Shown here: positions 11,379 to 41,919 of the stretch, in pieces
Layout of the letters: every line of letters starts with the position of its first letter
Position numbering within the stretch: position 1 is the first letter of the stretch
Assembly: GCA_035603475.1 (NCBI GenBank)
Contig: DATNKH010000791.1
Span: 1-43,067 of the forward strand
DNA length: 43,067 bases
From: Thermoanaerobaculia bacterium
Lineage (GTDB): Bacteria > Acidobacteriota > Thermoanaerobaculia > Multivoradales > UBA5704
Reading direction: 5' to 3'
The notes under the pieces: model-generated
Told to the model about the DNA's origin: nothing
Seen by the model: only the letters and a program-made list of their open reading frames with translations
The model's database searches: none
Position numbers and translations under genes: made by a program

Positions 11379-12214
11379 GCTGCCCCGACTGGCGCCGGCT
11401 GGACCCCGCCGCCCGCGATGCCGCCGGCGCGCCTCGTGCCGCCGCCGACGCCACTGGCGCGATCAGTGCGAGCGGCGCGATCGGCGCAGTCGGCGCGATC
11501 GACGCCCTTCATGCCCTCCACTGGCAACAGGCGCTCAGCCACCTCGACAGTGGCTGCCCCGACTGCTGGCGTGAGGCGCTTGCCGTCGATCCGACGCTGA
11601 TCTTCCGGCGGCTGCCGGCGGCGGAGCTCACTGCCGCGCAGGAGGCCGACGAGGTCGAGGCCGCGCGCCTGGCGGTGGCGGCCATGCGCACCGCCAGCCG
11701 CCTGGAGGATGCGGCTCGCGGCGATTCCGGTACCCGCTCGGCGAGCGGGCTGCGGCGGCACTGGCAGGACTGGCAGGCTGGGTCGGACTGGCCGGCGCAT
11801 GCACTGCGCCGCCTGCCGGCGATCCGCTCCCTGCCCTCTCTCCATGTCCATTCGGCGCGGTGGGCGGTGGCGGCCGGCCTGACGGCGATGGCGCTGGTCT
11901 ACGGTTCCGGCCACGGCTGGCGTCCCACGCCTCCCATGCCTCCCATTACCGCGGCCACGGCCACCGGTGCTCCTGGCCCGGCGGCTCCTGCCGATGCGCT
12001 CGCCGCCTCGGCAGCGGAGCCAGGTGGTCCAGGTGGTCCAGGTGGTCCAGGTCCACGGATGATGCCGCCGGGCTGGGCCGGCGCGTCGGCGGTGCAAGCG
12101 GCGTCGTCGCGACCCTCGATCGAGGGGCTGAGCCGGCCCGAGGCGCGGGTCTACCAGATCGACAGCCCGCACATGTCAGTGGTGATGATCGTGGACGGCA
12201 AGCTCGATGTCTGA
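11375..12214 (+). CDS. Putative anti-sigma factor (Cys/His N-terminus, one TM helix)
   Basis: The GTG start overlaps the sigma stop (GTGA at 11375-11378). The N-terminal region has SCPDW and HLDSGCPDCWREAL (close to zf-HC2, but H-x4-C-x2-C). A hydrophobic helix WAVAAGLTAMALVYG is present. Its position directly after an ECF sigma gene fits this role. Confidence 0.5.
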   Translation: MSCPDWRRLDPAARDAAGAPRAAADATGAISASGAIGAVGAIDALHALHWQQALSHLDSGCPDCWREALAVDPTLIFRRLPAAELTAAQEADEVEAARLAVAAMRTASRLEDAARGDSGTRSASGLRRHWQDWQAGSDWPAHALRRLPAIRSLPSLHVHSARWAVAAGLTAMALVYGSGHGWRPTPPMPPITAATATGAPGPAAPADALAASAAEPGGPGGPGGPGPRMMPPGWAGASAVQAASSRPSIEGLSRPEARVYQIDSPHMSVVMIVDGKLDV

Positions 12215-13112: not shown

Positions 13113-13261
13113 GAGCCAGGGAACCAGGTCGAGCCAGGGAACCAGGTCGAGCCAGGGAACCAGTTGAAGCCAGGGAATCAGGTAGGGTGGAGCCAGGGAG
13201 TCACGTAGAGGCAGGGAATCACGTCGAGCCAGGGAATCACGTCGAGCCAGGGAATGAACAG
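13113..13261 (+). repeat. 18-bp tandem repeat array, 8 copies (consensus GAGCCAGGGAAYCASGTC), intergenic, upstream of pilC
   Basis: Copies at 13113, 13131, 13149, 13167, then a 5-nt insert GGGTG, then 13190, 13208, 13226, 13244. Copies 1-2 are identical to each other, as are copies 7 and most of 8. The array ends 11 nt before ATG 13273. Confidence 0.9.
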
Positions 13262-18475: not shown

Positions 18476-19281
18476 CCGGTGCGCGCGGCGACATCTGGCG
18501 CCAGCGCCTGTGGGTGTGGGCGACCGCGCTGGCATTCGTGGCCCTCAACGGCATCGGCTTGCTGGTCTACCTGTTCGCGTACTCCGACCGCGTCAAGACC
18601 CTGGAGGTCGACCTGCGCGACCAGGGCAAGCGGCAGGCCGACGTCCACGCCGCGCACCTGCACTCCGAGGACCTGCTGCGCCAGGCGCGGGTCAACCGCG
18701 AGCGCATCCTGCAGCTCTACGACGAGCATTTCTCCACCCGCCGGCGGCGACTGACCGGAGTGACGGCGGAGGTCAAGGATCTCGCCGGGCGCGCCGGCCT
18801 GGTGCCGCGCACGATCAGCTATCCGGAGGAGCAGATCCAGCAGTACGGCTTGATCAAGCGCTCGTTCATCTTCTCGGTCGACGGCACGTATGCCGATCTG
18901 CGCAAGTTCATCAACCTGCTCGAGCTGTCGGACTCCTTCCTGACTCTCGAGGACATGTCGCTGGCCGAGGAAGGGCAGCGTCGCGACGCCGCCAACCGTT
19001 CCGGTTTCTCACCGCCGGCGGGGCTCGGGCAGCCGGCGGCCGCCGCCCGTCCGGGCGTGCCGGGCGTGCCGGGCGTGCCGCCGCCGCCGCCGCCGCAGGC
19101 CGGGCCGCCCGCCTCTCACGGGGCGCTGCGCATGGGGATGACGATCTCGACGCTCTTCTCCTCCCAGGACCAACCGCGGGACGTGCTGGCGCCGCTGCCC
19201 GGCGCCAACGCCGCCGACGGCGCCGCCGCCGCCCCCGGTGCGCGGCAGACGGCGCGTGGAAGGACGCCGCCGCCGCCATGA
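18472..19281 (+). CDS. pilO: PilO-like assembly protein
   Basis: ATG 18472 overlaps the pilN stop (ATGA). TM helix LWVWATALAFVALNGIGLLVYLF, a coiled coil, then SFIFSVDGTYADLRKFINLLELSDSFLTLEDMSL, typical of the PilO ferredoxin-like domain. A Pro-rich insertion precedes the last strand LRMGMTISTLF. Confidence 0.65.
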   Translation: MTGARGDIWRQRLWVWATALAFVALNGIGLLVYLFAYSDRVKTLEVDLRDQGKRQADVHAAHLHSEDLLRQARVNRERILQLYDEHFSTRRRRLTGVTAEVKDLAGRAGLVPRTISYPEEQIQQYGLIKRSFIFSVDGTYADLRKFINLLELSDSFLTLEDMSLAEEGQRRDAANRSGFSPPAGLGQPAAAARPGVPGVPGVPPPPPPQAGPPASHGALRMGMTISTLFSSQDQPRDVLAPLPGANAADGAAAAPGARQTARGRTPPPP

Positions 19282-19961
19282 GACAGAGACAGAAGGTGCT
19301 GCTGGGCGTGCTGGTGGTGCTCGCGCTGATCCTGGCCTGGGTCTACCTGGTGCCCGGCGACGACGCCGCGCCGCCGCCGCCCGCGATCGGCCGCAGCGCC
19401 GGCGCGATCGACTCCGATGCCGGCGTCGCCGTCGCGCCGGAGCCGTCGCCCGCGCTGGCTCGGCACCCGGTGGGCGCCTTCGCGGTGGTATCCGCCAGCG
19501 ATGCCGCGCCGGGCGCCCCGCAGAACGTCGAGCCGCTGCGCCTGGCCGCCTTGAGCCAGGTCCCACCCGGGTTCACCACCGGCCGCGACCCATGGCGCTT
19601 CGTCGAGCCGCCGCCGCCGCCGCCGCCGAAGCCGCGGGTGCCGTCGGCGGCGGAGCAGAGAGCGATGCGGGAAGCGGAGGAGGCGCGGCAGCGGCAGCTC
19701 GCGGAGGCGGCGCGGCGCGCCGCGATCGATGCGGCGACGCCCAAGCCGCCGCCGTTTACCTGGTCCTATCTCGGCAACTTCGGCCCGAGCAGCCTGCGCA
19801 TCGCCGTCTTCACCGACGGCAAGCGGGTCTGGAACGCGCGCCAGGGCGAGACGCTGGAGAACAAGTTCATCGTGGCCCAGATCGGCTACGAGTCCGTGGA
19901 CATTCGCTTCGTCGGGTTCCCCGACGTGCCCGCAGAGAGACTCGCGGTGGTCAAGCACTAG
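19278..19961 (+). CDS. PilP/GspC-like periplasmic protein
   Basis: ATG 19278 overlaps the pilO stop (ATGA). N-terminal anchor VLLGVLVVLALILAWVYL, a Pro-rich linker (PPPPPPPKP), and a C-terminal beta-rich module LRIAVFTDGKRVWNARQGETLENKFIVAQIGYESVDIRF. It sits directly upstream of the secretin gene. Confidence 0.5.
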   Translation: MRQRQKVLLGVLVVLALILAWVYLVPGDDAAPPPPAIGRSAGAIDSDAGVAVAPEPSPALARHPVGAFAVVSASDAAPGAPQNVEPLRLAALSQVPPGFTTGRDPWRFVEPPPPPPPKPRVPSAAEQRAMREAEEARQRQLAEAARRAAIDAATPKPPPFTWSYLGNFGPSSLRIAVFTDGKRVWNARQGETLENKFIVAQIGYESVDIRFVGFPDVPAERLAVVKH

Positions 19962-28980: not shown

Positions 28981-29841
28981 ATGACCGGTGGGCAGGGGCG
29001 GGCGCGCGGCTTGGCCGGCAGCCTGGCGGGCGGCCTGACCGGCAGCCTGGCCGGCAGCTCCATCATCGTCACCGGCGCCTCCCAGGGCATCGGCAAGGCC
29101 GTGTGCCTCGAGCTCGCCAGCCAAGGCGCCCGTCTCACCCTGGCCGCCCGCGACGCCGCCGCCCTCGAGCAGGTGGCCGCCGCCTGCCGCGAGCGCGGCG
29201 GCGAGGCCCTGGTCGTCCCCACCGACGTCTCCCAGCCCGCCGACTGCGAGCGCCTGATCCGCGAGGCCGCCGCCGCCTGGGGCGCCCTCGACGCCCTGAT
29301 CAACAACGCCGGCATCGACATGATCGCCCGCTTCGAAGACGTGGCCGACCTGCAGCTCTTCGAGCGCCTGATGCGAGTCAACTACCTGGGCTACGTCTAT
29401 CCCACCTACTACGCCCTGCCCGAGCTCCGCCGCTCCCGGGGCCGCCTGGTCGCCGTCTCCAGCCTTGCCGGCATGACCGGCGTCCCCACCCGCACCGGCT
29501 ACGCCGCCTCCAAGCACGCCATCTTCGGCTTCTTCGACTCCCTGCGCATCGAGCTCGCCGGCACCGGCGTCACGGTGACCCTCGTCGCCCCCGACTTCGT
29601 CCTCTCCGAGATCCACCGCCGAGCCGCCGGTCCCGACGGCCAGCCAGTGGGCCACAGCCCGATGCAGGAGTCCAGCATCATGACCGCCGAGCAATGCGCC
29701 CGCCACATCGTCAAGGCGATGCAGAAGCGCCAGCGCCTCCGGATCCTCTCGCTGAGGGGGCGGCTCGGGCGCTACGTGCGGCTGGTTGCACCGGGCTTGA
29801 TCGACGCGATCGCGGCGCGGGCGGTGCGGCTGGGGAGGTAG
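28981..29841 (+). CDS. Short-chain dehydrogenase/reductase (SDR)
   Basis: TGASQGIGKAV (TGxxxGxG), NNAGI, and catalytic S...YAASKHA (YxxxK). Confidence 0.9.
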   Translation: MTGGQGRARGLAGSLAGGLTGSLAGSSIIVTGASQGIGKAVCLELASQGARLTLAARDAAALEQVAAACRERGGEALVVPTDVSQPADCERLIREAAAAWGALDALINNAGIDMIARFEDVADLQLFERLMRVNYLGYVYPTYYALPELRRSRGRLVAVSSLAGMTGVPTRTGYAASKHAIFGFFDSLRIELAGTGVTVTLVAPDFVLSEIHRRAAGPDGQPVGHSPMQESSIMTAEQCARHIVKAMQKRQRLRILSLRGRLGRYVRLVAPGLIDAIAARAVRLGR

Positions 29842-29960: not shown

Positions 29961-30085
29961 CGTCCCCAAGTAACGAGGGCCAGGATGCCGAATCTAGACA
30001 TCGTAGGACGCAGCCTGAACAAGCCTTGGCGCAGCCCTTATCGGCTTCTTAAGGGGGGAGCGCCTAACGGCAACATGGGGGCCTT

Positions 30086-31294
30086 ATGACTGACAACCCG
30101 CTAGCTGCCATTGAGCCACGAGCACTGGCGGCTCGCGTTCGGGAGGCAAGAGAGGCCCGCGGCTGGACCCAGCAAGAGTTAGGTGACCGTCTTGGGATGG
30201 CACGAACCACGATTGTGGCTATCGAGAAGGCAGAGCGGCGCCTCAAACCGCGGGAGTTGATTGAGCTAGCAAGACTACTTGGAAGAAATGTGTCGGAACT
30301 CTTACAGCGGAGCAGTCCGCCTGAGGGGTTCTCCGTGCAGCTCCGGAGTGCTCTGCCAGTGTCTGCTCCTGTGGATTACGATCTAGTTCCGTACATCGAG
30401 GAGTTCCAACATCGATGTGAAGATTACCTAAGGCTTGAAGAGATCTGTCACGTGCCGCTACGAAGGCGGTATCCACCTGAATACGATATTCAGGGAGTGG
30501 ACCCCGACCAGGCTGCGGAGGACTTGGCGGCGGCCGAACGGAGTCGACTAGATCTAGGGGAAGGGCCGGTCTTGAGCCTTCGGGATCTACTCGAGACCGA
30601 AGTAGGGCTTCGAGTGTTTCAGCTTGATCTTCCGTCGAAGATCGCAGGGATGTTTGCTTTCGCAGCGTCTCTTGGAGGCTGCATTGCAATCAACCTTCGC
30701 CACCCGGTTGAGCGCCGGCGCATGAGCCTAGCCCACGAATACGGTCACTTCCTTATCGCCCGTTTCCGTTTCGAGATCACCTTTGATGGTCGCTATGAGC
30801 GAAGGCCCGCAGCAGAGCGCTTTGCAGAGGCCTTTGCAAGAGCCTTCCTGATGCCTGCTTCAGGGGTACGCCGACGCTTTCTAGAACACGAGCGCGAGAG
30901 ACCGCAAGGGATTACTTATGGCGATCTTTGCCGGCTAGCTCACTCTTATCTTGTTTCACTCGAAGCCATAACTCGCAGACTAGAGGAGCTTCGCCTGATC
31001 CCACTCGCCACCTGGGAGCGGCTCCGCCAAGAGAGATTTCGAGTCTATGAGGCAAAGCAGATTCTTGGCCTCGAATCTGCCGCTCATACCGATGATGCCC
31101 CGTTTTCGCCCCGCTACATTGCACTGGCAGTCGAAGCCTGGCAGCAAGGCGAGCTAAGTGAGGGCCAGCTTGCACATATTTTGCGCGTTGACCGTCTGGG
31201 GGCTCGCGAGCTTGCGCTAGCCGCTGCGGACGGAAGTGATCGAGGTGCCTTAGTGAACTTCGGAGCTCCGCTTTTCAGTTCGGGCAGTCGGTGA
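30086..31294 (+). CDS. XRE-family HTH fused to ImmA/IrrE-type (COG2856) zinc metallopeptidase
   Basis: HTH: LAARVREAREARGWTQQELGDRLGMARTTIVAIEKAER. The metallopeptidase HExxH lies in RRMSLAHEYGHFLIA. 402 aa. Confidence 0.85.
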   Translation: MTDNPLAAIEPRALAARVREAREARGWTQQELGDRLGMARTTIVAIEKAERRLKPRELIELARLLGRNVSELLQRSSPPEGFSVQLRSALPVSAPVDYDLVPYIEEFQHRCEDYLRLEEICHVPLRRRYPPEYDIQGVDPDQAAEDLAAAERSRLDLGEGPVLSLRDLLETEVGLRVFQLDLPSKIAGMFAFAASLGGCIAINLRHPVERRRMSLAHEYGHFLIARFRFEITFDGRYERRPAAERFAEAFARAFLMPASGVRRRFLEHERERPQGITYGDLCRLAHSYLVSLEAITRRLEELRLIPLATWERLRQERFRVYEAKQILGLESAAHTDDAPFSPRYIALAVEAWQQGELSEGQLAHILRVDRLGARELALAAADGSDRGALVNFGAPLFSSGSR

Positions 31295-31306
31295 AACCGG
31301 CGAGTC

Positions 31307-31876
31307 ATGTCCGAGGAGCGACCCGAGGCGCCGCTTTTGCTTTTTGATGCATGCTGCCTTATAAACCTCTTTGCTACTGGGCGGATCGAGGAGATCTTAG
31401 CTTGTCTTCCTTTTCGCTGCGCCACCTCTCGGCTGGTTGCCTCCAGGGAGGTCCTTGCGATCGCAGTCGAGGGATTGGCTGCTGAGCCTTTAGGGCGGGA
31501 CGTCATCCCGGCAAGCCGCCTTGAGACTGTGGCCAATCTGGCACTTCTGGATCTTGATACCGACGAAGAACTTGCAGCATTTGTTGGCTTCGCGTTGGAA
31601 CTCGACGATGGCGAAGCCTCAGTATGTTCACTTGCAGTGGCGCGGGGAAGGACGGTCGCAACCGATGATCGCAAGGCGCTTCGCATAATGGCGGAGTTGA
31701 CGCCGCCCGTTCTAACGGTGCAGACTCCGGATCTACTTTTCGAGTGGGCGGAGCGTCTCGAGCCGCCAAAAGCGGAAATACGTAGTGCTTTGCAGCGGGT
31801 TCAGCGGCGCGGTCGGTTCTACCCCCGCGTCGGTGCGCCTAGGCTTGAGTGGTGGGAGACCTTCCTGCAGGGCTGA
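31307..31876 (+). CDS. PIN-like domain protein, putative toxin partner of XRE-ImmA
   Basis: LLLFDACCLINL (first Asp) and LDDGEASVCSLAVARGRTVATDDRKALR (GE...T.D motif) fit a PIN fold. It lies 12 nt downstream of the XRE-ImmA gene and has the same low GC. Confidence 0.55.
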   Translation: MSEERPEAPLLLFDACCLINLFATGRIEEILACLPFRCATSRLVASREVLAIAVEGLAAEPLGRDVIPASRLETVANLALLDLDTDEELAAFVGFALELDDGEASVCSLAVARGRTVATDDRKALRIMAELTPPVLTVQTPDLLFEWAERLEPPKAEIRSALQRVQRRGRFYPRVGAPRLEWWETFLQG

Positions 31877-32104
31877 ACTCCTCGTGTAGCGCACCCGTGA
31901 TGCAATGGCATGCGGACAGGCTTCGGACAGGCGGCTCGTAGAAAGGAAGTTGCCCTGCCGAGGAAGGAAGACGCAACATAGCTGCCGCTGTCCAGGCTCA
32001 GCGTCAGCCCATGAGCCTCAGCTCCTCCACCGAGGCCCAGGAGATCTTGACGGCCAGCCTGCAGAGCCTTACTCGTATGTAAGGAGTATGGAGGTAATGT
32101 AAGG

Positions 32105-32344
32105 ATGGCTGCGGCTACCATCACCAGCAAAGGCCAGGTCACCATCCCGAAGGAGGTGCGCAAGGCGCTGTCCCTGGAGACGGGAGACAGGGTTGCCTTC
32201 GTGGTGCGCGACGACGGCGTGGCGGAGATGCACCGCGAGACGGTGGAGCTGATGTCTCTCTTCGGAGCCATCAAGCCTCGCGTCAAGGGGGTCAGCCTGC
32301 GGGACATGGACGACGCGATCCGCCGTTCCACGGCCCGCAAGTGA
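32105..32344 (+). CDS. AbrB/MazE/SpoVT-family antitoxin
   Basis: ITSKGQVTIPKEVRKALSLETGDRVAFVV is the canonical SpoVT-AbrB looped-hinge motif. The stop overlaps the GTG start of the PIN gene (GTGA). Confidence 0.85.
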   Translation: MAAATITSKGQVTIPKEVRKALSLETGDRVAFVVRDDGVAEMHRETVELMSLFGAIKPRVKGVSLRDMDDAIRRSTARK

Positions 32345-32862
32345 TCGCGCTTGACACCAACGTCCTGGTTCGGTTCCTGGTCGAGGACGATCCGGAGCAG
32401 AGCCGCCAAGCCAAGGCTTTGCTCGAGCGGGCCATCGCTGCCAACAGCGCTTGCTTCGTCTCCGAGGTCGTGGTCTGCGAGGTCGTGTGGGTCCTCGGGA
32501 CGAGTTACCAGGTTGGCCGCGAAGATATTGCCAGGGTCCTGAGGCAACCGCTGCGCGCGCGACACCTCACCTTCCCCGAGGGGGAACGCCTCTCGCGAGC
32601 CCTGAGTGCCTTCGACTCCGGGCGCGGGGACTTCGCCGATTACTTGATCCGAGAAGCCGCCCGAGAAGCAGGGTGTGAGGCCGTTGCGACCTTCGACCGC
32701 GGACTGCTGCGCGAGACGGGGTTCGTCGCCCCCTCACTCGCGCAGCTTGCGACCCACCGGCGCGCTCCCCTCCTCCTCCCCAGCAGTAGGTCCTCCCGCC
32801 GGCGGCAGTTGGCAGAGCACGAACGCCCCATGGGTGTACGGGGGATCGAAGTCGTTCGTTGA
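32341..32862 (+). CDS. vapC: PIN-domain toxin VapC (unusually long C-terminal tail)
   Basis: MIALDTNVLVRFLVEDD, ...FVSEVVVCEVVWVL..., ...GDFADYLIREAAREAGCEAVATFDRGL are PIN motifs. The last ~40 aa (R/S-rich) run into a convergent ORF and may not be genuine. Confidence 0.8.
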   Translation: MIALDTNVLVRFLVEDDPEQSRQAKALLERAIAANSACFVSEVVVCEVVWVLGTSYQVGREDIARVLRQPLRARHLTFPEGERLSRALSAFDSGRGDFADYLIREAAREAGCEAVATFDRGLLRETGFVAPSLAQLATHRRAPLLLPSSRSSRRRQLAEHERPMGVRGIEVVR

Positions 32863-32949
32863 CTGCGCGAGATCGAACCAGAGATCCCAGGCGAGATCGA
32901 GCTCCTCCGGGGTCATCTGCCGCAGGTTGAGGTCGTCCTCACTGAGCAT
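32734..32949 (-). CDS. Small hypothetical protein (71 aa), possible partner of the NTase-fold gene
   Basis: The internal ATG 32949-32947 of track ORF 32734-33174 overlaps the upstream gene's stop by 11 nt. It translates to MLSEDDLNLRQMTPEELDLAWDLWFDLAQSTNDFDPPYTHGAF..., an ordinary protein-like composition. I recognise no family. Confidence 0.35.
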   Translation of the reverse strand: MLSEDDLNLRQMTPEELDLAWDLWFDLAQSTNDFDPPYTHGAFVLCQLPPAGGPTAGEEEGSAPVGRKLRE

Positions 32950-33742
32950 TTCCACGGCTCGGACCTCCCTTGGCGAAAGGATCGACAGGAAGGGTGCGCA
33001 GGGCGAGCTCGACGGCGCGCTGGTGCGCTTCCGGCAGCTCCAACTCAGCGATGCCGGTGGCCTGGAACTCCCGCAGAAAAGGCTCCGCGGCGACACGGAA
33101 GCGCTCGAGCCGTGCCCGGTCCTCCGTCTGCATCCGATCGGCTTCTCGCGCCAGCTCGACGACGACCTCGTCACGCGAGCGCCCCTCGCGAGCGGCTTGA
33201 ACCGCCCGGCGCCTGGAACCTTCGCCGTGGCGCGGTGCCAGCGCGAGGATGCGGTCGGGATCTGTCGTCAGCTCGATCTCTCGCTCCGGAGGGAGCATCC
33301 GGGCGAGCTCGCCGATGACCGGGTAGTCCTTGGCTCGCTGGGTCTGCTTCATGCGGATAAGGGGCTCGATCGGCACGACCAGCGTCGGCGCCGCGGTCAC
33401 GGTGAAGAGTGTCGACAGCTCTTCTTCCGACACTCGAGGAGGCCGCGTGAGAAAGTCGCAGCGTATGCGCCGGCCCTTGGGATCGAAGAACTCGAAATGG
33501 CTCGACCAGCCGGCCGCCAGCCACCGGAGGTCGAGCGGCGCACCGGGCCGGTACCGGGCGCCTCGCCGGGTGAGCACGTCGAGCGCCCGCCGGCAGGCCG
33601 CCGGCGTCTCCAATAGGATCCAGTCGCCGTCCTTGCTCATCATGGCAAGGCGGTAGAAGACCACGGCCTGGCCGGAGGCGAGCGCGGCGATAGGGCCCTC
33701 CGCGTTCAGTTCGCGGGTCAGCTCGAAGTAGACGTTCTCCAC
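32939..33742 (-). CDS. Hypothetical protein with minimal nucleotidyltransferase-like fold (MNT/AbiEii/DUF2204-like)
   Basis: ALASGQAVVFYRLAMMSKDGDWILL fits the G[SG]...D.D NTase signature. LIRMKQTQRAKDYPVIGELARML fits the L..K...R.KD..D...L helix common in these families. This is recall only. Confidence 0.45.
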   Translation of the reverse strand: MENVYFELTRELNAEGPIAALASGQAVVFYRLAMMSKDGDWILLETPAACRRALDVLTRRGARYRPGAPLDLRWLAAGWSSHFEFFDPKGRRIRCDFLTRPPRVSEEELSTLFTVTAAPTLVVPIEPLIRMKQTQRAKDYPVIGELARMLPPEREIELTTDPDRILALAPRHGEGSRRRAVQAAREGRSRDEVVVELAREADRMQTEDRARLERFRVAAEPFLREFQATGIAELELPEAHQRAVELALRTLPVDPFAKGGPSRGNAQ

Positions 33743-33837
33743 CGCCGGCGACTATAGCCGAACCCGGTGCGGGCGCCTCTGGGACCTCTAAGAATGGTAG
33801 GCTCTGCGGCCGTCCGGGCCTCCCGCACTCTGGATCG

Positions 33838-36800
33838 ATGGCTGCATTCGCTCACCTCGAATTCCATCGCGCTGGCATCGGCCTCGTGCCGGCGGGCCAG
33901 CCTGCCGACCTGCCGGCCGGCCAGGCGGCTACCGAGACCGCGATCTGGGTCCGGCAGGTGGCGGGGAGCCGCGAGCCGCTGCGTTCGTGCAACTGCAAGG
34001 CGAGCCGCAACGGCGCCTGCGAACACCTGCGGCAGCTCGACCGCGCACTGGCCGAGCTGAAGCGCGAGGGCGACGGCCGCCCCGAGGGTGCCGCTCCGGA
34101 AGCTCGCTGGGAGACGGCCTTCCCGGCCACGACCTGGTACCGCCTCGCGCGGCTGCTCCAGGAAGGCGGCGCCCAGCCGTGCGGCGAGGTGCGGGTGAGC
34201 CAGCGCCGCGCGGACGACCAGGGGGCCGAGATCCGCGTCACCTCGGCTTCCGGCGAGGAGCTGGCCCGCTACCTGGACCCTTCGCCCGCCCAGCTTCGCT
34301 TCCTGGAACGGACCGGCAAGACCGGCAGTGACGGCCGCACCTTCGACCGCGCCGGACTGCTGACGCGGCTTGCGCTCTTCCAGCTCACCTCCGACGAGCG
34401 GGCGCTGGCCAAGATGGGAGCCAAGACCGAGCGCCTGAGCTGGGAGGAGAGCTTCTGGCACCGGCTGGCGTATCACTGCGTACGCGAGCTGGGGCGGGAC
34501 GCCTGCACCTTCCATCCGGCCGTCGACCAGGAGAGCGGCCGCTTCACCCTGACCTGCCGCCGGGGTGACCAGCCGCTCGTCGAGGTCTCGGTTCCACGCG
34601 GCAAGGTGCGCGCGGCGCTCGCGCTGCTGTCCCGGGAGTTTCCCGGGCAGCGGGACCTGGCGATCCACCCGCTGCCGCTGCGCTCGATCTTCCACGTCAC
34701 CGAGGAGACCCGGTTCGATCTCTCCGAGGTGGTGGCGCGCCCCGCCATCGCGGCGATCCAGGCTTCGGGCGAGGAACGCTACTTCCACTCCGCGGAGCTC
34801 GAGCGGTTCCGCTACGGCGACCTCGTCTACCTTCGGGAGCTCGGCATCCTCGCCGAGCTGGAAAGCCCGGGCCGCGAGCGCAAGTTCCGCGCCCCGATCG
34901 AGATGAGGCTGACCCGCAGCCAGGTCCCGAGCCTGCTGGCCGAGAACAGCCAGGCCTGGGAGGCGGGCTCCCTGGTGCTCGACGGGCCGCTACGCCACCG
35001 CCGGCTCCTGCGCGACTTCGACGCGGTCCAGATCGCCGGCGAGGCGCTCGAGCGGAGCTGGTACTGGCTGTCGATCCGCTACGGCTTCGGCAACGAATCG
35101 GTCTCGCTCGGCGAGCTGCTACGCGCCCGGCGCGACGGCCTGCCGTTCGTCGAGATCGCGCAGGGGTGGATCGATCTCAACGCCCCTGCTTTCGGCCACC
35201 TCGACCGGCTGGCTGGCCGGGTCGAGCAGGAGCTCGCCGCCGAGTCCGCCCCCCGCGGCCACGGACCGGACGCCATCCGCCTGTCGGCGAGCGAGCTGCT
35301 GCGCTGGCAGGCGGCGGTCGGCAAGCCGGTGTCGCTACCGGCGGCCGGTGCAGCCGATCTGGGCGGCCTGCTCGAGCTGCGCCCGGCCCTGCCGCTGCCG
35401 CCGCTCGCGGGGCTGCGGTCGGCGTTGCGCCCCTACCAGCGGATCGGGCTCGAATGGCTGCGCTTCCTGTGCGAGAACCGGCTCGGCGGCCTGCTCTGTG
35501 ACGACATGGGCCTCGGCAAGACCCACCAGGCGATGGCGCTGCTCGTCGCCCTCGCCGAGCAACGGGCCGTCGATGCGCCCTGCCTGGTCGTCTGCCCGAC
35601 CAGCGTCATCAGTCACTGGCGCGACAAGCTCCGCGATCATGCCCCCGGGCTGCGGACGCTCATCCATCACGGTGTGCAGCGCGCCCTGCCGTCCGGCCTC
35701 GGGGCCGGCGACGTGGTCGTCACCTCCTACGGCGTGCTGCTGCGCGACGCCCCGGAGCTTGCCGGGACGGCCTTCGCGGTGGCGGTCTTCGACGAGGTGC
35801 AGTACCTCAAGAACCCTGACACCAAGGCCTACCAGGCGGCCGAGCGGCTACGGGCCGACGTCAAGCTCGGCTTGACCGGCACGCCGATCGAGAACTCGCT
35901 CGACGACCTGCGCGCGCTCTTCGAGCTGGTGCTGCCGGGTTACCTGGGCCACCACCCGGCGTTCGCGCGGCGCCGGCCCGAAGGCGTGCTCGACGCCGAG
36001 CGTGAGGCGCGGGAGTCGAACCCGCTCGCACTGGCGCTGCCGCTGCCCGTGCCGCAGGCGACGCCTGCCGCCGGCGCCGAGGCGGCGCGGCGGCGGCAAG
36101 ACGAGGAGGAGGAGAGCGCGCGCGGCGAGCTGCGGCGCATCATCGCGCCATTCGTCCTGCGCCGCCTGAAGCAGGCGGTGCTCGACGAGCTGCCGGAGAA
36201 GATCGAGGACCTGCGCACGTGCGCGCTGTCGTCAGACCAGGTACGGCTCTACCGGGAGGCCGTGGGCGGGCGTGGCGCGGAGCTGGCGCGGGCCATCACG
36301 GCGGCCCGGGAGCCGCTGCCCTACATTCACATCTTCGCGCTGCTCCAGCTCCTCAAGCAGATCTGCGATCACCCGGCGCTTGCGCTGCGGCGGCTGGACG
36401 AGGCGGAGAGCTTCGCTTCGGGTAAGTGGGACCTCTTTCGCGAGCTGCTATCGGAGTGCCTGGAGAGCGGCCAGAAGGTGGTCGTCTTCACTCAGTTCCT
36501 GGGCATGATCACGCTCATGCGGCGCCACTTGGAGAGCCTGGGCGTCGGCCACGTGATCTTGACCGGTGCGAGCGGCGGCGCCGCCGCTCGCGGCGCGCTG
36601 CTCGAGCGCTTCCGCCGCGAGCCCGGCTGCCGGGTCTTCCTGGGCAGCCTGCGCGCCGGCGGCATCGGCATCGACCTCGCCGCCGCCTCGACCGTCATCC
36701 ACTACGACCGCTGGTGGAACGCCGCCCGCGAGGACCAGGCGACCGACCGCGTGCACCGCCTGGGCCAGCGCCGCGCCGTGCAGGTTTTCAAGCTGCTCAC

Positions 36801-36942
36801 CGAAGGCACGCTCGAAGAGAAAGTTTCCGCGATCATCGAGCGCAAGCGCCGGCTGATGGACAGCGTCGTACAACACGACGATCCGGCGCTCGCGAAGATC
36901 TTCACCCGCGCCGAGCTGCTCGAGCTGCTGCAGGGGGTCTGA
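33838..36942 (+). CDS. SWIM zinc-finger - SNF2-family helicase/translocase
   Basis: SWIM [13 protein letters not shown] (C-x-C-x7-C-x-H). SNF2 motif I [13 protein letters not shown], motif II [9 protein letters not shown], and the C-terminal helicase block [32 protein letters not shown]. Confidence 0.9.
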   Translation: [1034 protein letters not shown]

Positions 36943-36944
36943 TG

Positions 36945-36958
36945 GGATCGGAGCCGCC
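36945..36958. repeat. Left copy of a perfect 14-bp direct repeat GGATCGGAGCCGCC flanking the TIR-WD40 gene
   Basis: Read directly: 36945-36958 is GGATCGGAGCCGCC, 3 nt after the SNF2 stop. An identical string occurs at 40059-40072. Confidence 0.85.
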
Positions 36959-39900
36959 CCCTGGGCCACAGCCCGCAAGGAATGAACCAGGACGGTCAGG
37001 GAAGCCGTGAGCACGTCTTCCGATAAGGTCTGTCGCCAAAATACTGCTTCCATTGTTCTTCACCCAGGTTGCGAGTCAGCCTTGAACAGGCTTCTCGAAT
37101 CAACTCTTCGGGCCGCAACAGGTCTCGCTGCACCGAGACGTAATCTGATCTTGCCGAGGTTACTGCTTCGGACTCCAACCTGCCGGACGAGGCAGTTTGA
37201 AGAATGCGGCCTTCCTCCATGAAGTTCATCGCTTTAACACGTCCGTCCACATTGATGCGCGACAGCTCGCGGCCTGTGGCTGCCTGGAACACTCGTACAG
37301 TGTAGTCACTGCTGGCACTGGCGACAGAGACATTATCGGGGCTGATGGTCAACGACGTTACCGAGGCCTGGTGCGCCAGCCGCGCAACCTCCTTACCGCT
37401 TGCCGTCTCAAAGACATGCGCCATGCGACCGACTCCGGTGGCAAGCCAGCGCCCATCAGGGCTGAATGCGACGGCGCCGACACTGGAGTGCTCGCTCAGG
37501 TGCCAAACCTCGCGGCCAGTGGAGGCAAGGAACACGCGTGCCGTACCATCTGACGAGCCAGTGCCCAAGCGACTGCTGTCAGCACTGAAAGCCAAGACTT
37601 CAACCGCGCTTCGATGCTGCAGGCGAACGACTTCCTTCCCACGCAGAACGTCGAAGATATGCACCTCGTGGTCTCCACCGGCGGTAGCCACGAGGCGACT
37701 ATCAGGGCTGAAGAGCATGGCGCCCAAGCCTTCCCCAAGTTTGCAGGCGAACACGATCGCGCCATTCGCCGCTGCTGAGACACGGGCTTCACCATCTGCA
37801 CTCGCGCTTGCCACCCAGCGGCCATCTGGACTGAACGAGACGGCCTCGACCTCCTTCTCGGCCAATTGCGCCAACTTCCTGCCGCTTGGAACTGCGAAGA
37901 CCCGAGCGCCGTCGTCGTCGGCGATCGCCACTTTCCGACCGTCACCGCTAAAGGCAGCGGGCTCACCCTCGCCGAGATACAGTAATCGCTTCCCGGTAGG
38001 CTTGAAGCTGGCGAGGTCAAGCGGTTGAAGAGTCATTGCCGCCAGGAGATCTCTACGCGGCAAGCGCAGGACGATCTCGCCAAGCGCTATATCGATAACT
38101 TCGATAGACTGACCATCATAACTCTTCACCGCGAGCCAGCGCCCATCAGGGCTGAATCGCACGGTCGTAAGCAGGTTCTGCTCCGGAAGCCGTGTTACCT
38201 CGCGACCATCAGAAGCCTGGAGCGCGCTCAGGGTGCCTCCCGTTCCTATGAAAAGCCTGCGACCATCCGCGCTAAAGGCGACCAGGAGTACCGGGCCTTG
38301 CTGGTTGAGGTGAGCCACCTCCCTACCGCCCGATGTCTCGAAGATACAAGCTGTGGCGTCGTGGCTGCCCGTTGCGATCCAGCGAGCATCAGGGCTGAAT
38401 GCAATTGAGTCGACGAAATCCCGATGCGCCAGTCGTAAAAGCTCCTTGCCCGTCGAACGCTCGAAGACCCGTGCTGTGCTGTCATTATTTCCAGTGGCAA
38501 CCAAACGACTATCTGAACTAAACACGAGCGCGCGAACCCCACCCATGACGGAGAACGGTTCTCCGCCAGCGGAAGCCACGCGCTCTCGCCATCCGCTGGG
38601 GTCCGGGCGTGGTAATTCTTTACCATCCGCGATGCCGGCAACTCTTGCCGTTCCATCCCAACCGCCGCTGGCGATCCATCGGCTGTCCGGGCTGAATGCA
38701 AGGGCAGTGACACCGCCGCTGTGGAGCGCGAGAGCGATTCTCTTCCCACCGCCTATCTCGAGTACCTGCACAATGCCGTCATCGCTTCCCGCGGCTATCC
38801 ACAGCTCATCAGGGCTGAAAGCAAGCGCAGAGATGTAGCGCGGCTGTCCGTGACGCACCGCTTCTTTGCCAGTAGAGAGATCCACCACGGATAGTGTGCC
38901 GCTCCTGCTCGCTCTCGCCAGCCATCGCCCAGTCCCGCTCAGGGCTGTAAGGTAAGTTCCTTCTTGGCCCGCCAACTGGGCGATTGACTTCCCGGTGTCC
39001 AGCTCAACAAGACGTGACGAACCTTCGAGAGTTCCCGCAGCTATCGCTTTACCGTTAGGGGAGAAGGCCAAAGATACGACCTTGGCGTTCCCAATCCAAT
39101 GTGCCACCTCAGTACCCGCACGGCCATCGAACACATGCACAGAGCGATCTCCGCGCGCTATCGCGACAAGACCGGTGGCGCCAAATGCCGAGGCTGTAAT
39201 CGTGTCGGCCGATTTGTTCGCGAATAGCGGTCGCCGTAAATGGTACAAAGACTCGCGTAAGGCCTGGTCGTTTTCTATGCTCGGAAGCAAGCGCATTGAT
39301 TCAATCGCAAGCAGCACCCTGGTCTCTAGCGCGAAGGGTTGGCCCCGCAGCTGATCCGACTGGGCCGCCAATTGCCGGGAAAACGCGGCCCGCCTTTGTT
39401 GATTGGCGATCGCTGCCTCAAACGCCGCTACGAGCGCACCAGCTAGAATGACAGCGAGAAGACCGCCCAGGAAGACTCTGCGTCGCCTGTTCGCCCGGAA
39501 GAAGCCAAAGAAAGCGACGATTCTCTCAACTACTTCAGGCGACGCATCGTCTAGTCCTGTAACCTCCTCGCGCTCGTCAATCCAAACACGGTCCGTCTGT
39601 TGCAAGATCATTTGCACCGACGGGCCCGGAGCAGAGCCGGCAGGCGGAGCGTCTATCAGCAAAGGCCGCGAAGCGGCCAAGCGGATTGGAATGATCTGTC
39701 GCGAGTAGGTCGCAAAGACACGGAGTTCGTTCAACACGTATTGCGATCGCAGGCTTCCGGGCGAAACCACGATGACCAGCGCTCTACTGCGACGTAGTGC
39801 AGTGCGCACCGTATCAGCGAGAGGCGATCCTGCGGGAAGGTCGTGGTCGTCGAGGAAGCAATGGATATCCCTCCCCCGGAGCTGCCGCTCAAGACTTGCT

Positions 39901-40058
39901 GCATATCTCGAGACCTCCTGTCGTTTGTATGAGATGAAGACATCGAAGCCAAAAAGTGGCGCCCAGTTGATGGACCGTCGAACCGGGAAGGCGCCATCAT
40001 CACGCTTCAGGTCTGCCTCGACGCCCATAGGATTCGGTCAGGAACGCAAGTCGCTGCA
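36959..40058. mobile_element. Putative inserted single-gene cassette (low GC, bounded by 14-bp direct repeats), with no recombinase inside
   Basis: The GC drop (about 52% in hand-counted line 37201-37260) coincides with the TIR-WD40 ORF. It is bounded by the direct repeat copies at 36945-36958 and 40059-40072. Confidence 0.4.
36996..40028 (-). CDS. TIR domain - single transmembrane helix - ~15 WD40 repeats
   Basis: TIR: FDVFISYKRQEVSRYAASLERQLRGRDIHCFLDDHDLPAGSPL...SRALVIVVSPGSLRSQYVLNELRVF. TM: RANRRRR-VFLGGLLAVILAGALVAAFEAAI (about nt 39408-39476). About 15 blades follow of the form AFSPDGRWIA.GS.DGTARVF....GKEV. At DNA level these blades recur as ...CATCAGGGCTGAATGC... . Confidence 0.85.
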   Translation of the reverse strand: MGVEADLKRDDGAFPVRRSINWAPLFGFDVFISYKRQEVSRYAASLERQLRGRDIHCFLDDHDLPAGSPLADTVRTALRRSRALVIVVSPGSLRSQYVLNELRVFATYSRQIIPIRLAASRPLLIDAPPAGSAPGPSVQMILQQTDRVWIDEREEVTGLDDASPEVVERIVAFFGFFRANRRRRVFLGGLLAVILAGALVAAFEAAIANQQRRAAFSRQLAAQSDQLRGQPFALETRVLLAIESMRLLPSIENDQALRESLYHLRRPLFANKSADTITASAFGATGLVAIARGDRSVHVFDGRAGTEVAHWIGNAKVVSLAFSPNGKAIAAGTLEGSSRLVELDTGKSIAQLAGQEGTYLTALSGTGRWLARASRSGTLSVVDLSTGKEAVRHGQPRYISALAFSPDELWIAAGSDDGIVQVLEIGGGKRIALALHSGGVTALAFSPDSRWIASGGWDGTARVAGIADGKELPRPDPSGWRERVASAGGEPFSVMGGVRALVFSSDSRLVATGNNDSTARVFERSTGKELLRLAHRDFVDSIAFSPDARWIATGSHDATACIFETSGGREVAHLNQQGPVLLVAFSADGRRLFIGTGGTLSALQASDGREVTRLPEQNLLTTVRFSPDGRWLAVKSYDGQSIEVIDIALGEIVLRLPRRDLLAAMTLQPLDLASFKPTGKRLLYLGEGEPAAFSGDGRKVAIADDDGARVFAVPSGRKLAQLAEKEVEAVSFSPDGRWVASASADGEARVSAAANGAIVFACKLGEGLGAMLFSPDSRLVATAGGDHEVHIFDVLRGKEVVRLQHRSAVEVLAFSADSSRLGTGSSDGTARVFLASTGREVWHLSEHSSVGAVAFSPDGRWLATGVGRMAHVFETASGKEVARLAHQASVTSLTISPDNVSVASASSDYTVRVFQAATGRELSRINVDGRVKAMNFMEEGRILQTASSGRLESEAVTSARSDYVSVQRDLLRPEELIREACSRLTRNLGEEQWKQYFGDRPYRKTCSRLP

Positions 40059-40072
40059 GGATCGGAGCCGCC
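40059..40072. repeat. Right copy of the 14-bp direct repeat GGATCGGAGCCGCC
   Basis: Read directly: 40059-40072, between the TIR gene start (40028) and the GMC oxidoreductase stop (40099). Confidence 0.85.
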
Positions 40073-40098
40073 GCCAAAGCAGTGACCCCGGGTCGCCC

Positions 40099-41919
40099 TC
40101 ATGGTCTCGCGTCGGCGAGGATCACGTCGCTGGCCTTCTCGGCGATCATGTAGATCGGGGTGACGATGAAGAAGCCGGGGATGCGGGGGAAGACCGAGGC
40201 GTCCACGATGCGCAGGTTCTGGGTCCCGATGACGCGGAAGTTGCTGTCGACGACGGCATTCGGATCGGTCGCCGGGCCCATCGGGTTGGTGCAGGAGGCG
40301 TGGTGGCCCCAGGCGTTGTCCTTGACGAACTGGACGACCTCGGCGTGCGTCCCCACGGCCGGCCCGGGGTCGGTCTCCTGCTTGATGGCCGAGCTCTTCT
40401 GCGAGATCCGCCGCACGAACTCGACGCCGCTCGCCACCGATTCGGCGTCGTTCCCCTGCGTGTCGCTCCCCTCGTCGAAATACTTGAAGTGGATCTCGGG
40501 GCTGTCGAGCGGGCTCGCCGAGCGCAGGCGCACGTAGCCCGCGGTGTTGTTGGTGTGCGCCGCGAGGATCGCCCAAGTCAGGTAGTTCTTCGTCCGCTCG
40601 ACCTCTTGCGAGTAGCCGGGAAAGTAGCCATAGAACTTGCCCGGGAGAGCGAAGATGAAGAGGTCGGGATCGGGGCGCTCCGGCGCCGACTTCTTGATGA
40701 TGCCGAGGACGGCGCCGCCGGTGGTGTACACCCCCTTGCCGTTCTGCCAGTCGACGTAGCAGGGATCGCCCTGCTGGTTCGGCAGCGGCGGCGCGAAGGT
40801 CGCGCCGGCGAGCAGCTTCCAATCCTGCTTCATCTCGGTGACGACGCCCACCTCGTAACGGTCCTGGAGGTTCGTTCCCACGCCCGGCCGATCGAGGAGA
40901 CAGGTGATCCCGACTTGCTCCAGGTGCGCACGCGGCCCGATGCCGGAGAGCATCAGCAGCTGCGGCGAGTTGAAGGCGCCGCCCGCGAGGATCACCTCGC
41001 GGGCGCAGTAGTAGCGGACGACGTCGTAGTCGTCGTCGGCCTGCGGATTGGCGACGGCCCGCGGGTCGGCCCGGTAGAGATGCTGGCCTTCCCAGCACTC
41101 GACACCGATCGCGCGCATGTCGGCGTCGAAGAGGACCTTCGTCGCCAGGTTGCTCATCTTGACGACGAGCTGCTGCGGATGCACGGCGCGCGTCTGATCG
41201 ATCAGCTCGCGCGTGCTCACCCGGCGGCCGCCGAGGGTCGCGGCCGGCGCGAAGCAGATCCCTTCGAATTGCGGCGTCCGCCAGTCGTTGGGGTCCTGGG
41301 GCAAGAGCTGGGGCAGCGGACCGGTGACCCCTTCCTTCCACGCCCCGAAGATGGCGCCGAGGATGGTCTCGATCAGGGCCGGGTCGCCGAAGACGAGCGA
41401 GAGCTCGGGGCCGGTGGTGTGGAGCCAGCCATCCCAGCCGTGGCGGGTCGGGTTCGGCTGGCCGGCGCCGGGTCGCGGCACGTAGCCGCAGGACTCGATG
41501 CGCTCGAAGTAGGCGCGCATCTTGTCCGCCGCCCACGAGGGATCGCCGGTGAGCCGTGCGATGTGGTCCCAGTCGCTGCCATGCCCGTAGACGGTGATCA
41601 TGGCATTGTGCGACGTGCAGCCGCCGAGGGTCCCGGCGCGGGGATAGAAGATCCCGCCCTTGTCGGCACGGTACTTCGAGTCGCGCTGCGGGTTCTGACT
41701 GTAGTGCTGGACGTAGAACTCCCACGACATCGCCGGGTCTTCGGACGCGTAGGTGTGGAAGACTGGCACCGGATAGGAGGTCGTGTCGGGCTCCTGCCCC
41801 GCCTCGATCAGGCCGACCTTGTAGCCGGCCTTGGCGAGGTTGCACGCCACCGGCCCGCCGCCGGCGCCCGAGCCGACGACGATGTAATCGAAATCGGGAT
41901 GCTGCGGATCGTTCGGCAT
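40099..41919 (-). CDS. GMC-family FAD-dependent oxidoreductase (choline dehydrogenase-like)
   Basis: The start is chosen at MPNDPQHPDFDYIVVGSGAGGGPVACNLAKAGYKVGLIEAG (ADP-binding GxGxxG). GMC-like C-terminal HASCT...DASVFP motifs are present. The track ORF to 42105 is over-extended across the intergenic repeat. Confidence 0.9.
   Translation of the reverse strand: MPNDPQHPDFDYIVVGSGAGGGPVACNLAKAGYKVGLIEAGQEPDTTSYPVPVFHTYASEDPAMSWEFYVQHYSQNPQRDSKYRADKGGIFYPRAGTLGGCTSHNAMITVYGHGSDWDHIARLTGDPSWAADKMRAYFERIESCGYVPRPGAGQPNPTRHGWDGWLHTTGPELSLVFGDPALIETILGAIFGAWKEGVTGPLPQLLPQDPNDWRTPQFEGICFAPAATLGGRRVSTRELIDQTRAVHPQQLVVKMSNLATKVLFDADMRAIGVECWEGQHLYRADPRAVANPQADDDYDVVRYYCAREVILAGGAFNSPQLLMLSGIGPRAHLEQVGITCLLDRPGVGTNLQDRYEVGVVTEMKQDWKLLAGATFAPPLPNQQGDPCYVDWQNGKGVYTTGGAVLGIIKKSAPERPDPDLFIFALPGKFYGYFPGYSQEVERTKNYLTWAILAAHTNNTAGYVRLRSASPLDSPEIHFKYFDEGSDTQGNDAESVASGVEFVRRISQKSSAIKQETDPGPAVGTHAEVVQFVKDNAWGHHASCTNPMGPATDPNAVVDSNFRVIGTQNLRIVDASVFPRIPGFFIVTPIYMIAEKASDVILADARP

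Follow-up and report, generated by a model that had tools for sequence, protein, structure and literature searches.

A TIR-WD40 gene inserted between two copies of a 14-bp direct repeat in Thermoanaerobaculia

The attC site of an integron gene cassette is an imperfect palindrome of roughly 57-141 bp, with R'', L'', L' and R' boxes and the sequence GTTRRRY at its boundary. Among tyrosine-integrase sites, the common core of lambda is 15 bp. Casposases produce target duplications of 14-15 bp and favour sites at the extreme 3' end of host genes (PMC6977970, PMC5137440). Here we describe a locus which shares some features with each of these systems. It lies in a stretch of 43,067 nucleotides (the window) from an uncultured Thermoanaerobaculia bacterium (Acidobacteriota; GenBank assembly GCA_035603475.1, soil-metagenome contig DATNKH010000791.1, positions 1 to 43,067), in which a gene encoding a TIR-WD40 protein is enclosed by two copies of a 14-bp direct repeat. 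The footprint, which consists of a 14-bp duplication around one promoterless open reading frame (ORF) with no mobility gene and no end signal, fits no named cassette or transposon family.

Most gains of genes in prokaryotic 'defence islands' are known as presence or absence only, with no trace of the route of entry. For the gain described here, which comes from uncultured soil bacteria, the pre-insertion site, the boundaries to the base pair, the polarity and a rough age could all be recovered. One case amounts to a well-documented curiosity and not to a new system; further cases, if found, would suggest that single immune-type genes can be acquired by a trans-acting route. The predicted TIR-transmembrane-WD40 layout of the protein is a separate lead.

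Insertion of a foreign gene at a single-copy site

The 14-mer GGATCGGAGCCGCC occurs in two exact copies on the forward strand of the window, at 36945-36958 and 40059-40072, as an initial annotation made from the sequence had claimed. A scan at 0-1 mismatch found no third copy in the window; at up to two mismatches there are five matches, against 2.7 expected. The left copy begins 2 nt (not 3 nt, as first reported) past the stop codon of a gene encoding an SNF2-family helicase (1,034 aa; 33838-36942, forward strand; Pfam SNF2-rel_dom and Helicase_C), which is found in both empty and filled lineages. The right copy sits between the start of the TIR-WD40 gene (40028) and the stop of a gene encoding a GMC oxidoreductase (40099). 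The latter protein has 606 aa (40099-41919, reverse strand; Pfam GMC_oxred_N and GMC_oxred_C), and its gene lies upstream of TIR-WD40 on the same strand. The repeat has a GC content of 79% and stretches to 17 nt if one mismatch is allowed. Identity between the two copies ends abruptly; the left copy runs into insert sequence and the right copy into the ancestral spacer, and within one filled site the two show no similarity past 14-17 nt (p = 0.3-0.85).

The inserted segment (36959-40058) is 3,100 bp long, and the repeat period is 3,114 bp. It comprises the TIR-WD40 ORF with a 30-nt 5' leader (40029-40058, reverse strand) and a 37-nt 3' trailer (36959-36995, reverse strand), and no other gene, in good agreement with the earlier remark that the interval corresponds almost exactly to this ORF. 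The trailer forms only a weak 4-bp hairpin and folds no better than shuffled sequence. The insert begins with CCCTGGGCC on the left and ends with GTCGCTGCA on the right. Taking the repeat as 17 bp with a single mismatch gives insert ends of 5'-TG...CA-3' (36959-36964 and 40053-40058), dinucleotides that typify the termini of DDE transposons and of retroviral-type integrases; if it is taken as an exact 14 bp, the CA-3' of the right end alone fits, and this weak likeness may be coincidence.

How much weight the repeat can bear depends on how often such repeats arise. The window has 70% GC and contains 121 maximal exact direct repeats of at least 14 nt. Two spacers of 53 and 70 nt share a match of at least 14 nt with an empirical chance of 4.5e-4 to 7.8e-4, so that the value near 1e-4 proposed at first was about five-fold too optimistic. 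Over about 35 genes, the chance of finding a repeat-flanked gene is roughly 2-3% per window. The repeat alone is therefore suggestive, not decisive. A second exact 14-mer, TGGGCCACAGCCCG (29648-29661 and 36962-36975), joins the insert trailer to the 3' part of an SDR gene 7.3 kb upstream; it is probably due to chance, given 121 such pairs. The further similarity CGGTCAGG(G)AA, which had been noted just inside each end of the insert, is present (36993-37003 and 40035-40044), but it does not appear to be meaningful: 15% of comparable segment pairs are expected to share an 8-mer, and the left copy is not conserved in L154 or L160, the sister lineages. We treat it as chance.

Relatives without the gene were found at the same place. 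In three Thermoanaerobaculia lineages (L074, L167 and L006) SNF2 lies directly beside GMC, with a spacer of 40-65 nt, and the inserted segment is absent. In L074 (WNFJ01074852.1; 91-95% nucleotide identity) the blastn alignments to the window end at 36954 and restart at 40060, overlapping by 9 nt within the repeat. Its 40-nt spacer reads TGA-TC-CGATCGGAGCAACC-GCGAATGCAGGACGCGGGGCGCCC-TCA, and the right copy of the window together with 40073-40098 reads GGATCGGAGCCGCC-GCCAAAGCAGTGACCCCGGGTCGCCC-TCA. L074 thus has the single repeat copy that the initial annotation had proposed to look for, identical at 11/14 positions; it begins like the left copy of the window after the SNF2 stop and continues colinear with the right copy and its flank over the whole spacer. 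The rest of the ancestral spacer in the window (40073-40098), with GGGTCGCCC at its end before the GMC stop, aligns with the spacers of L074, L167 and L006. L167 (Ga0210384_10002256; SNF2 95% amino acid identity) has a similar 40-nt spacer. In L006, a metagenome-assembled genome (SMAG_U265; about 94% nucleotide identity), homology to the window ends at 36949 and resumes at 40089, with 50 nt between.

The L006 spacer (6149-6198) differs from the simple 40-nt spacer of the other empty sites. It contains a private palindrome with a 9-bp stem, CCCGGTGGA-N8-TCCACCGGG, which occurs nowhere else in the fetched loci and is not a repeat family there; a terminator, a small insertion and a scar are all conceivable. 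Motifs related to the repeat also follow the SNF2 stop in L165 (CAATCGGTGCCGTC) and L169 (CGATCCGCGCCGCC), despite different downstream genes, and stand at the same position as the left copy, as do the single L074 copy and the corresponding motif in L167. The 14 bp that were duplicated thus belong to the host and open the SNF2 3' untranslated region (UTR).

A filled site with both repeat copies is also present in L154/L155 and L160, at 97-98% nucleotide identity. The right copy of L160 has changed by 1 nt to GGATCGGAGCCGAC, and the repeat appears to be an inert, drifting scar. Four assemblies of the source organism have these junctions, as do two further lineages which come from different samples; since they are reproduced across assemblies and samples, a chimeric assembly is excluded. 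The insert trailer differs by indels between the window (36976-36995) and L154/L160 (8779-8819 in L154), while its surroundings are 97% identical. In L154/L160 the trailer holds ATGCAGGACTCG, which resembles the empty-site spacer ATGCAGGACGCG of L074 (3005-3020). A duplication longer than 14 bp was considered on account of this resemblance (ATGCAGGAC...; shuffle p = 0.008); it is one of eight comparisons and was not taken as evidence.

The polarity of the change follows from trees. A tree of GMC and the adjacent gene p717, rooted with other Thermoanaerobaculia species and tested with 200 bootstraps, has the form (L074,(L167,(L006,(window,L154,L160)))). Monophyly of the filled lineages is recovered in 200/200 replicates, and the three empty lineages form a clade in 0/200; L006 is sister to the filled clade in 147/200. 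The SNF2 protein tree agrees (filled lineages monophyletic in 199/200, empty lineages a clade in 2/200). The filled clade is nested in a grade of empty lineages, so that a single insertion, placed on its stem, suffices; deletion needs three independent precise losses. The earlier proposal of a cassette insertion that left a target-site duplication or an att-like repeat is thus supported by both the empty sites and the rooted trees. Among the three filled lineages the TIR-WD40 ORF is intact. Its synonymous divergence (dS 0.05-0.09) is about that of the flanks (0.04-0.06), which indicates vertical inheritance since the insertion, and its ratio of non-synonymous to synonymous divergence (dN/dS 0.22-0.26) shows that the gene is under purifying selection.

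The segment also has a foreign base composition; the initial annotation had noted its lower GC. The GC content of the insert is 0.597, against 0.722 for SNF2 and 0.675 for GMC, and the stretch 37201-37260, counted by hand at about 52%, has a computed value of 0.517. At third codon positions (GC3) the difference is larger: 0.62 for TIR-WD40, 0.91 for SNF2, 0.88 for GMC and 0.96 for p717. The closest non-syntenic homologues of TIR-WD40 (59-61% amino acid identity) are on contigs of 52-56% GC. Low GC3 and the composition of these contigs argue for a foreign origin, in agreement with the polarity of the insertion. No direct repeat, including GGATCGGAGCCGCC, was found around these homologues.

Possible routes of entry

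None of the ORFs in the 43-kb window has an integrase, transposase, Cas1, PolB or reverse transcriptase domain, which extends the earlier finding of no integrase or transposase within or beside the insert. No tRNA gene or Rfam element was found at the locus. There are no terminal inverted repeats joining the insert ends, and no poly(A)-like tail or intron signature in the insert. When folded as RNA, neither junction does better than shuffled sequences on either strand (z -0.17 to +1.84), and no attC-like hairpin or terminator was found at the junctions.

Several named classes were rejected. A REP or other intergenic repeat family, a possibility which had been raised from the start, does not fit because the exact 14-mer is confined to the filled-site junctions in the window and in 2.1 Mb of fetched related loci. 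A DDE transposon, MIC or MITE is unsuitable given the lack of terminal inverted repeats and the restriction of the segment to a single genomic context across all collections searched. An Xer-dependent (dif/pdif) module was set aside because the repeats are 14 bp, direct and without dyad symmetry, versus XerC/XerD sites of 28 bp; this was judged by eye, with no formal dif-model scan. The suggestion of an integron-like cassette was not borne out: there is no attC, no GTTRRRY core and no intI or attI with a cassette array, and the neighbours are the SNF2 helicase and GMC genes. The attC test took in the 37-nt trailer, the junction folds, which are not significant, and GGATCGGAGCCGCC, which contains no GTT; it was made without a dedicated attC model. 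A casposon was rejected because the insert encodes only TIR-WD40, with no Cas1 or PolB elsewhere in the window and no terminal inverted repeats.

We favour, with a probability of roughly 0.5, a staggered 14-bp cut followed by fill-in, which would make the repeat a true target-site duplication, over a crossover at an att-type core. The foreign segment of about 3.1 kb entered once, in the ancestor shared by the three sampled filled lineages of Thermoanaerobaculia. Its target was the spacer of roughly 40 nt between the convergent SNF2 and GMC genes, which would have been opened with a 14-bp stagger at +3 to +16 after the SNF2 stop. A linear insert would then have been joined and the single-stranded gaps filled in, leaving GGATCGGAGCCGCC on both sides. 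The enzyme may have acted in trans, or may have been a host break-repair activity; either would have left no gene and no recognisable end signals. Since then the repeat would have drifted as an inert scar, and selection has kept the gene.

Several points weigh against this reading. A duplication of 14 bp is unusually long; bacterial DDE transposons typically give 2-12 bp. A transposase-type reaction normally requires defined element ends, and none are seen; a repair-type capture would need a break with a 14-nt stagger. Conservative crossover at a 14-bp core shared with a circular donor would give the same product. In L006, the closest relative with an empty site, the spacer is rearranged and lacks a clean single copy of the repeat. 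Finally, this is a single event, and no repeat flanks the three other clean indels found in related loci.

The crossover just mentioned is the foremost alternative, which we regard as possible but doubtful. It holds that a circular, cargo-only cassette with the same core of 14-17 bp recombined with the chromosomal core just 3' of SNF2, served by a tyrosine recombinase elsewhere in the genome or on a helper, in the manner of a CIME or satellite; the two repeats would be attL and attR. An identical core of 14-17 bp at the 3' end of a gene is typical of tyrosine-integrase sites, and the repeat does reach 17 nt once a mismatch is allowed. Like integron cassettes, the unit is compact and has no promoter, and the region is a variable island with toxin-antitoxin and defence-like genes. 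Target duplication is preferred to crossover because the repeat is host 3' UTR with a host-like GC and its identity stops abruptly at 14 bp, because the insert neither has recombinase sites nor leaves room for them (30 and 37 nt of non-coding sequence at its ends cannot hold arm sites, and there is neither dyad symmetry nor a hairpin), and because neither other cargo nor other SNF2-adjacent rearrangements make use of the core, whose copies are not maintained, as L160 illustrates. The missing recombinase in 43 kb, the absence of the core elsewhere in the 2.1 Mb of related loci and the restriction of the cassette to one genomic context, away from plasmids and phages, also count against an att site. 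Loss rather than gain is improbable. It would make TIR-WD40 ancestral and have the relatives lose it by slippage or recombination between two chance 14-bp repeats. Exact repeats of this length are common here (the 121 pairs mentioned above), deletions do occur nearby, as the MazE-PIN remnant in L006 attests, and L074 resembles a precise single-copy product. Against this stand the three precise losses required on a grade, versus one gain, and a GC3 of 0.62 in a genome of about 0.9, which marks a recent import. The L006 spacer differs from the expected single-copy product, and chance repeats in exactly the two short spacers around one complete gene have a probability of about 5e-4.

Insertion in trans by a casposase or solo-Cas1-like integrase, or by a reverse-transcription-based pathway copying a transcript-sized unit, is if anything a little less probable than loss. 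It would insert 'naked' single-gene units without element ends and leave a 14-bp duplication, and would be an undescribed acquisition route in Acidobacteriota. The duplication has the length expected and starts 2 nt after a stop codon, and the insert is sized like one transcription unit, with its 30-nt leader, ORF and 37-nt trailer and no promoter. The window, however, lacks Cas1, PolB and reverse transcriptase, and the insert lacks terminal inverted repeats. The target is not a tRNA gene, there is no poly(A)-like tail, intron signature or Rfam match, and the instance is single. The least probable explanation of all is that the repeat is coincidental to an indel, or is an artefact of assembly. 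A few-per-cent chance does exist across the window that some gene is flanked by a repeat of at least 14 nt, but the alignments to three empty relatives break on the repeat, and those to L074 overlap within it. An artefact is opposed by the reproduction of the junctions in several assemblies and samples; in addition, 14 nt is far below the assembly k-mer sizes implied by the contig-name prefixes k127 and k141.

The TIR-WD40 protein and the variable island

The TIR-WD40 gene (36996-40028, reverse strand) encodes a protein of 1,010 aa, deposited as HXO30084.1 'TIR domain-containing protein'; it matches Pfam TIR_2 at 61.3 bits (cut-off 28) and WD40 at 234 bits. The TIR domain occupies residues 30-123 (39660-39941, reverse strand). 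Glu101, in the motif YVLNEL, aligns with the ...LDEL... or ...LMEL... position in the chains of plant TIR and SARM1 TIR structures and is invariant among homologues. The protein thus has the TIR fold and the conserved Glu at the catalytic position which characterise TIR-domain NAD+-cleaving effectors, and is a putative NADase. The WD40 region spans about residues 287-950 (37179-39170, reverse strand), matches Pfam WD40 and beta-propeller families, contains about 14 blades and comprises two beta-propellers; in the DNA it appears as internal periodic repeats of 123/243 nt. Between the two regions there is a single predicted transmembrane helix (residues 185-203; 39420-39476, reverse strand), preceded by RANRRRR. 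It has a Kyte-Doolittle mean of 2.6 over 19 aa and is the sole segment above 1.6; its position is conserved in the homologues P0001-P0006. By the positive-inside rule, the TIR domain would be cytoplasmic and the WD40 array extracytoplasmic, so that the protein may be receptor-like rather than soluble. The protein also has a conserved helical linker, which cyanobacterial caspase-WD40 proteins share.

PADLOC matches to the protein are at the level of domains only (ThsB, E 3.5e-5; SAVED_TIR, 2.6e-13 over residues 29-103). Thoeris and other defence systems catalogued by PADLOC were ruled out, as there is no full-length match and no ThsA or SAVED partner. Within the cluster at 90% amino acid identity, the gene is confined to one genomic context, and searches of plasmids and phages gave domain-level matches without the cassette itself. 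A scan of 36700-40400 found no promoter-like (sigma-70-like) site in the 70 nt upstream of the gene, including the leader. TIR-WD40 lies directly downstream of p717-GMC on the same strand, which makes read-through the simplest route of expression; the gene is probably transcribed from the p717-GMC operon in this way.

The insert is part of a variable island between the core genes AA-permease/SDR (end 29841) and GMC-p717. A second block of low GC (30000-32600) has a value of 0.597, the same as the TIR-WD40 insert. This block holds a gene for a regulator with HTH and M78 peptidase domains, which is RmrA/CapP-like (30086-31294), a PIN-like ORF of 189 aa (31307-31876) and a MazE-PIN module (32105-32730). 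The first two are restricted to the window lineage and absent from L006, L154 and L160; copies of MazE-PIN are also found in L154 and L160. There the toxin-antitoxin module lies between orf267 and SNF2 (L154 12029-12736; L160 16277-16970). In the same gap L006 retains a remnant of about 130 nt (reverse complement, 6620-6760) and the window has none (33743-33837); no repeat flanks the module.

The genes orf73, orf267 and SNF2 travel together. The SNF2 protein, which is DpdE/ZorD-like, has strong PADLOC matches to DpdE and ZorD. The divergent orf267 and a small overlapping ORF (32734-33742 in the window), neither with a family match, accompany SNF2 in most lineages examined; in L168 nothing but short ORFs stands in their place, and other genes intervene in L169 and in L154/L160. 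SNF2, orf267 and the small overlapping ORF may be a conserved three-gene unit.

Relatives differ downstream of the SDR gene (L163, for example, has GmrSD), and the gene 3' of GMC is different in each related species. Downstream of SNF2 there are five different arrangements among relatives. Next to SNF2 orthologues of 90-96% amino acid identity are small ORFs followed by p717 without GMC in L165 (10100-11050), AHSA1 in L168 (6543-7400) and SDR-259 without p717-GMC in L169 (10076-10230). In this clade, then, even the p717-GMC pair is accessory. In L165 and L169 the breakpoints lie about 30-40 nt past the SNF2 stop, and in L168 right after it; reuse of the 14-mer as a breakpoint by these SNF2-adjacent rearrangements was not seen. 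The idea of a hotspot holds only loosely, for a region of high variability; the other rearrangements break away from the 14-mer.

A survey of clean indels of at least 300 nt among 20 related loci found three besides TIR-WD40: MazE-PIN, L012 8577-9938 (against L011) and L017 3216-5185 (against L013-L015). None has a flanking repeat. The latter two are single-gene-sized and have a host-like GC; one is directly 3' of GMC and the other is a GMC paralogue. As only the TIR-WD40 insertion is repeat-flanked in this survey, the footprint is specific to one event and does not represent a general mode of gene turnover here.

Just beyond the right end of the window, the interval from SDR-259 to p717 (L001 1731-2789) contains a gene of 272 aa in the window lineage and L154. 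In L160 (4772-5662), L006 (936-1924) and L167 it contains a pair of 79 aa and 194 aa (DUF6036/AbiEii-like) instead; this replacement has no flanking repeat. Elsewhere in the window, short tandem repeats (9-nt CCAGGTGGT units, 18-nt GAGCCAGGGAACCAGGTC units and GCC runs) are found at 12020-12052, 13113-13260, 19051-19096 and 19607-19630, in or beside a type II secretion or pilus cluster.

Comparison with described elements and TIR proteins

Like non-autonomous cargo transposons (MICs and MITE-like elements), the segment carries cargo without a transposase inside a target duplication, which implies mobilisation in trans. It differs from them in the lack of terminal inverted repeats and of further copies, and its duplication is longer than is usual for bacterial IS families. 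With integron gene cassettes it shares a single promoterless ORF, minimal non-coding DNA, an orientation in line with the upstream transcription unit and the lack of a recombinase of its own. Integron cassettes, in turn, do not have a flanking 14-bp duplication, and the locus lacks attC, GTTRRRY, intI and an array.

A 14-bp target duplication placed at the extreme 3' end of a host gene is a feature of casposons (PMC6977970, PMC5137440), and this is what is seen after SNF2. The insert differs from casposons by having no casposase, PolB or terminal inverted repeats; at 3.1 kb with one cargo gene it also contrasts with the large transposons of the literature, and its target is the 3' UTR of a bacterial protein gene, not a tRNA gene. 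Integrase-less att-flanked elements (CIMEs, cis-mobilisable elements and tyrosine-integrase islands) likewise have a direct repeat of 14-17 bp around cargo at a gene 3' end with no integrase inside; here the repeat is 14 bp if exact and 17 bp with one mismatch. In contrast to such elements, there is no helper integrase in the window, the insert ends are too short for arm sites, the available sequence shows no other use of the core, and the copies have been left to drift.

The gene product is best compared with bacterial TIR immune or conflict proteins which have repeat sensors, such as TIR-STAND-WD40/TPR proteins and Thoeris ThsB. It is unlike them in having no NTPase (STAND) module and no ThsA partner, and in the predicted transmembrane helix between TIR and WD40. 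It is like them in its N-terminal TIR domain with a Glu at the catalytic position and its C-terminal WD40 array. Its setting is also similar: the gene lies in a variable island with toxin-antitoxin and helicase genes, and its distant homologues lie in clusters of several TIR-domain genes.

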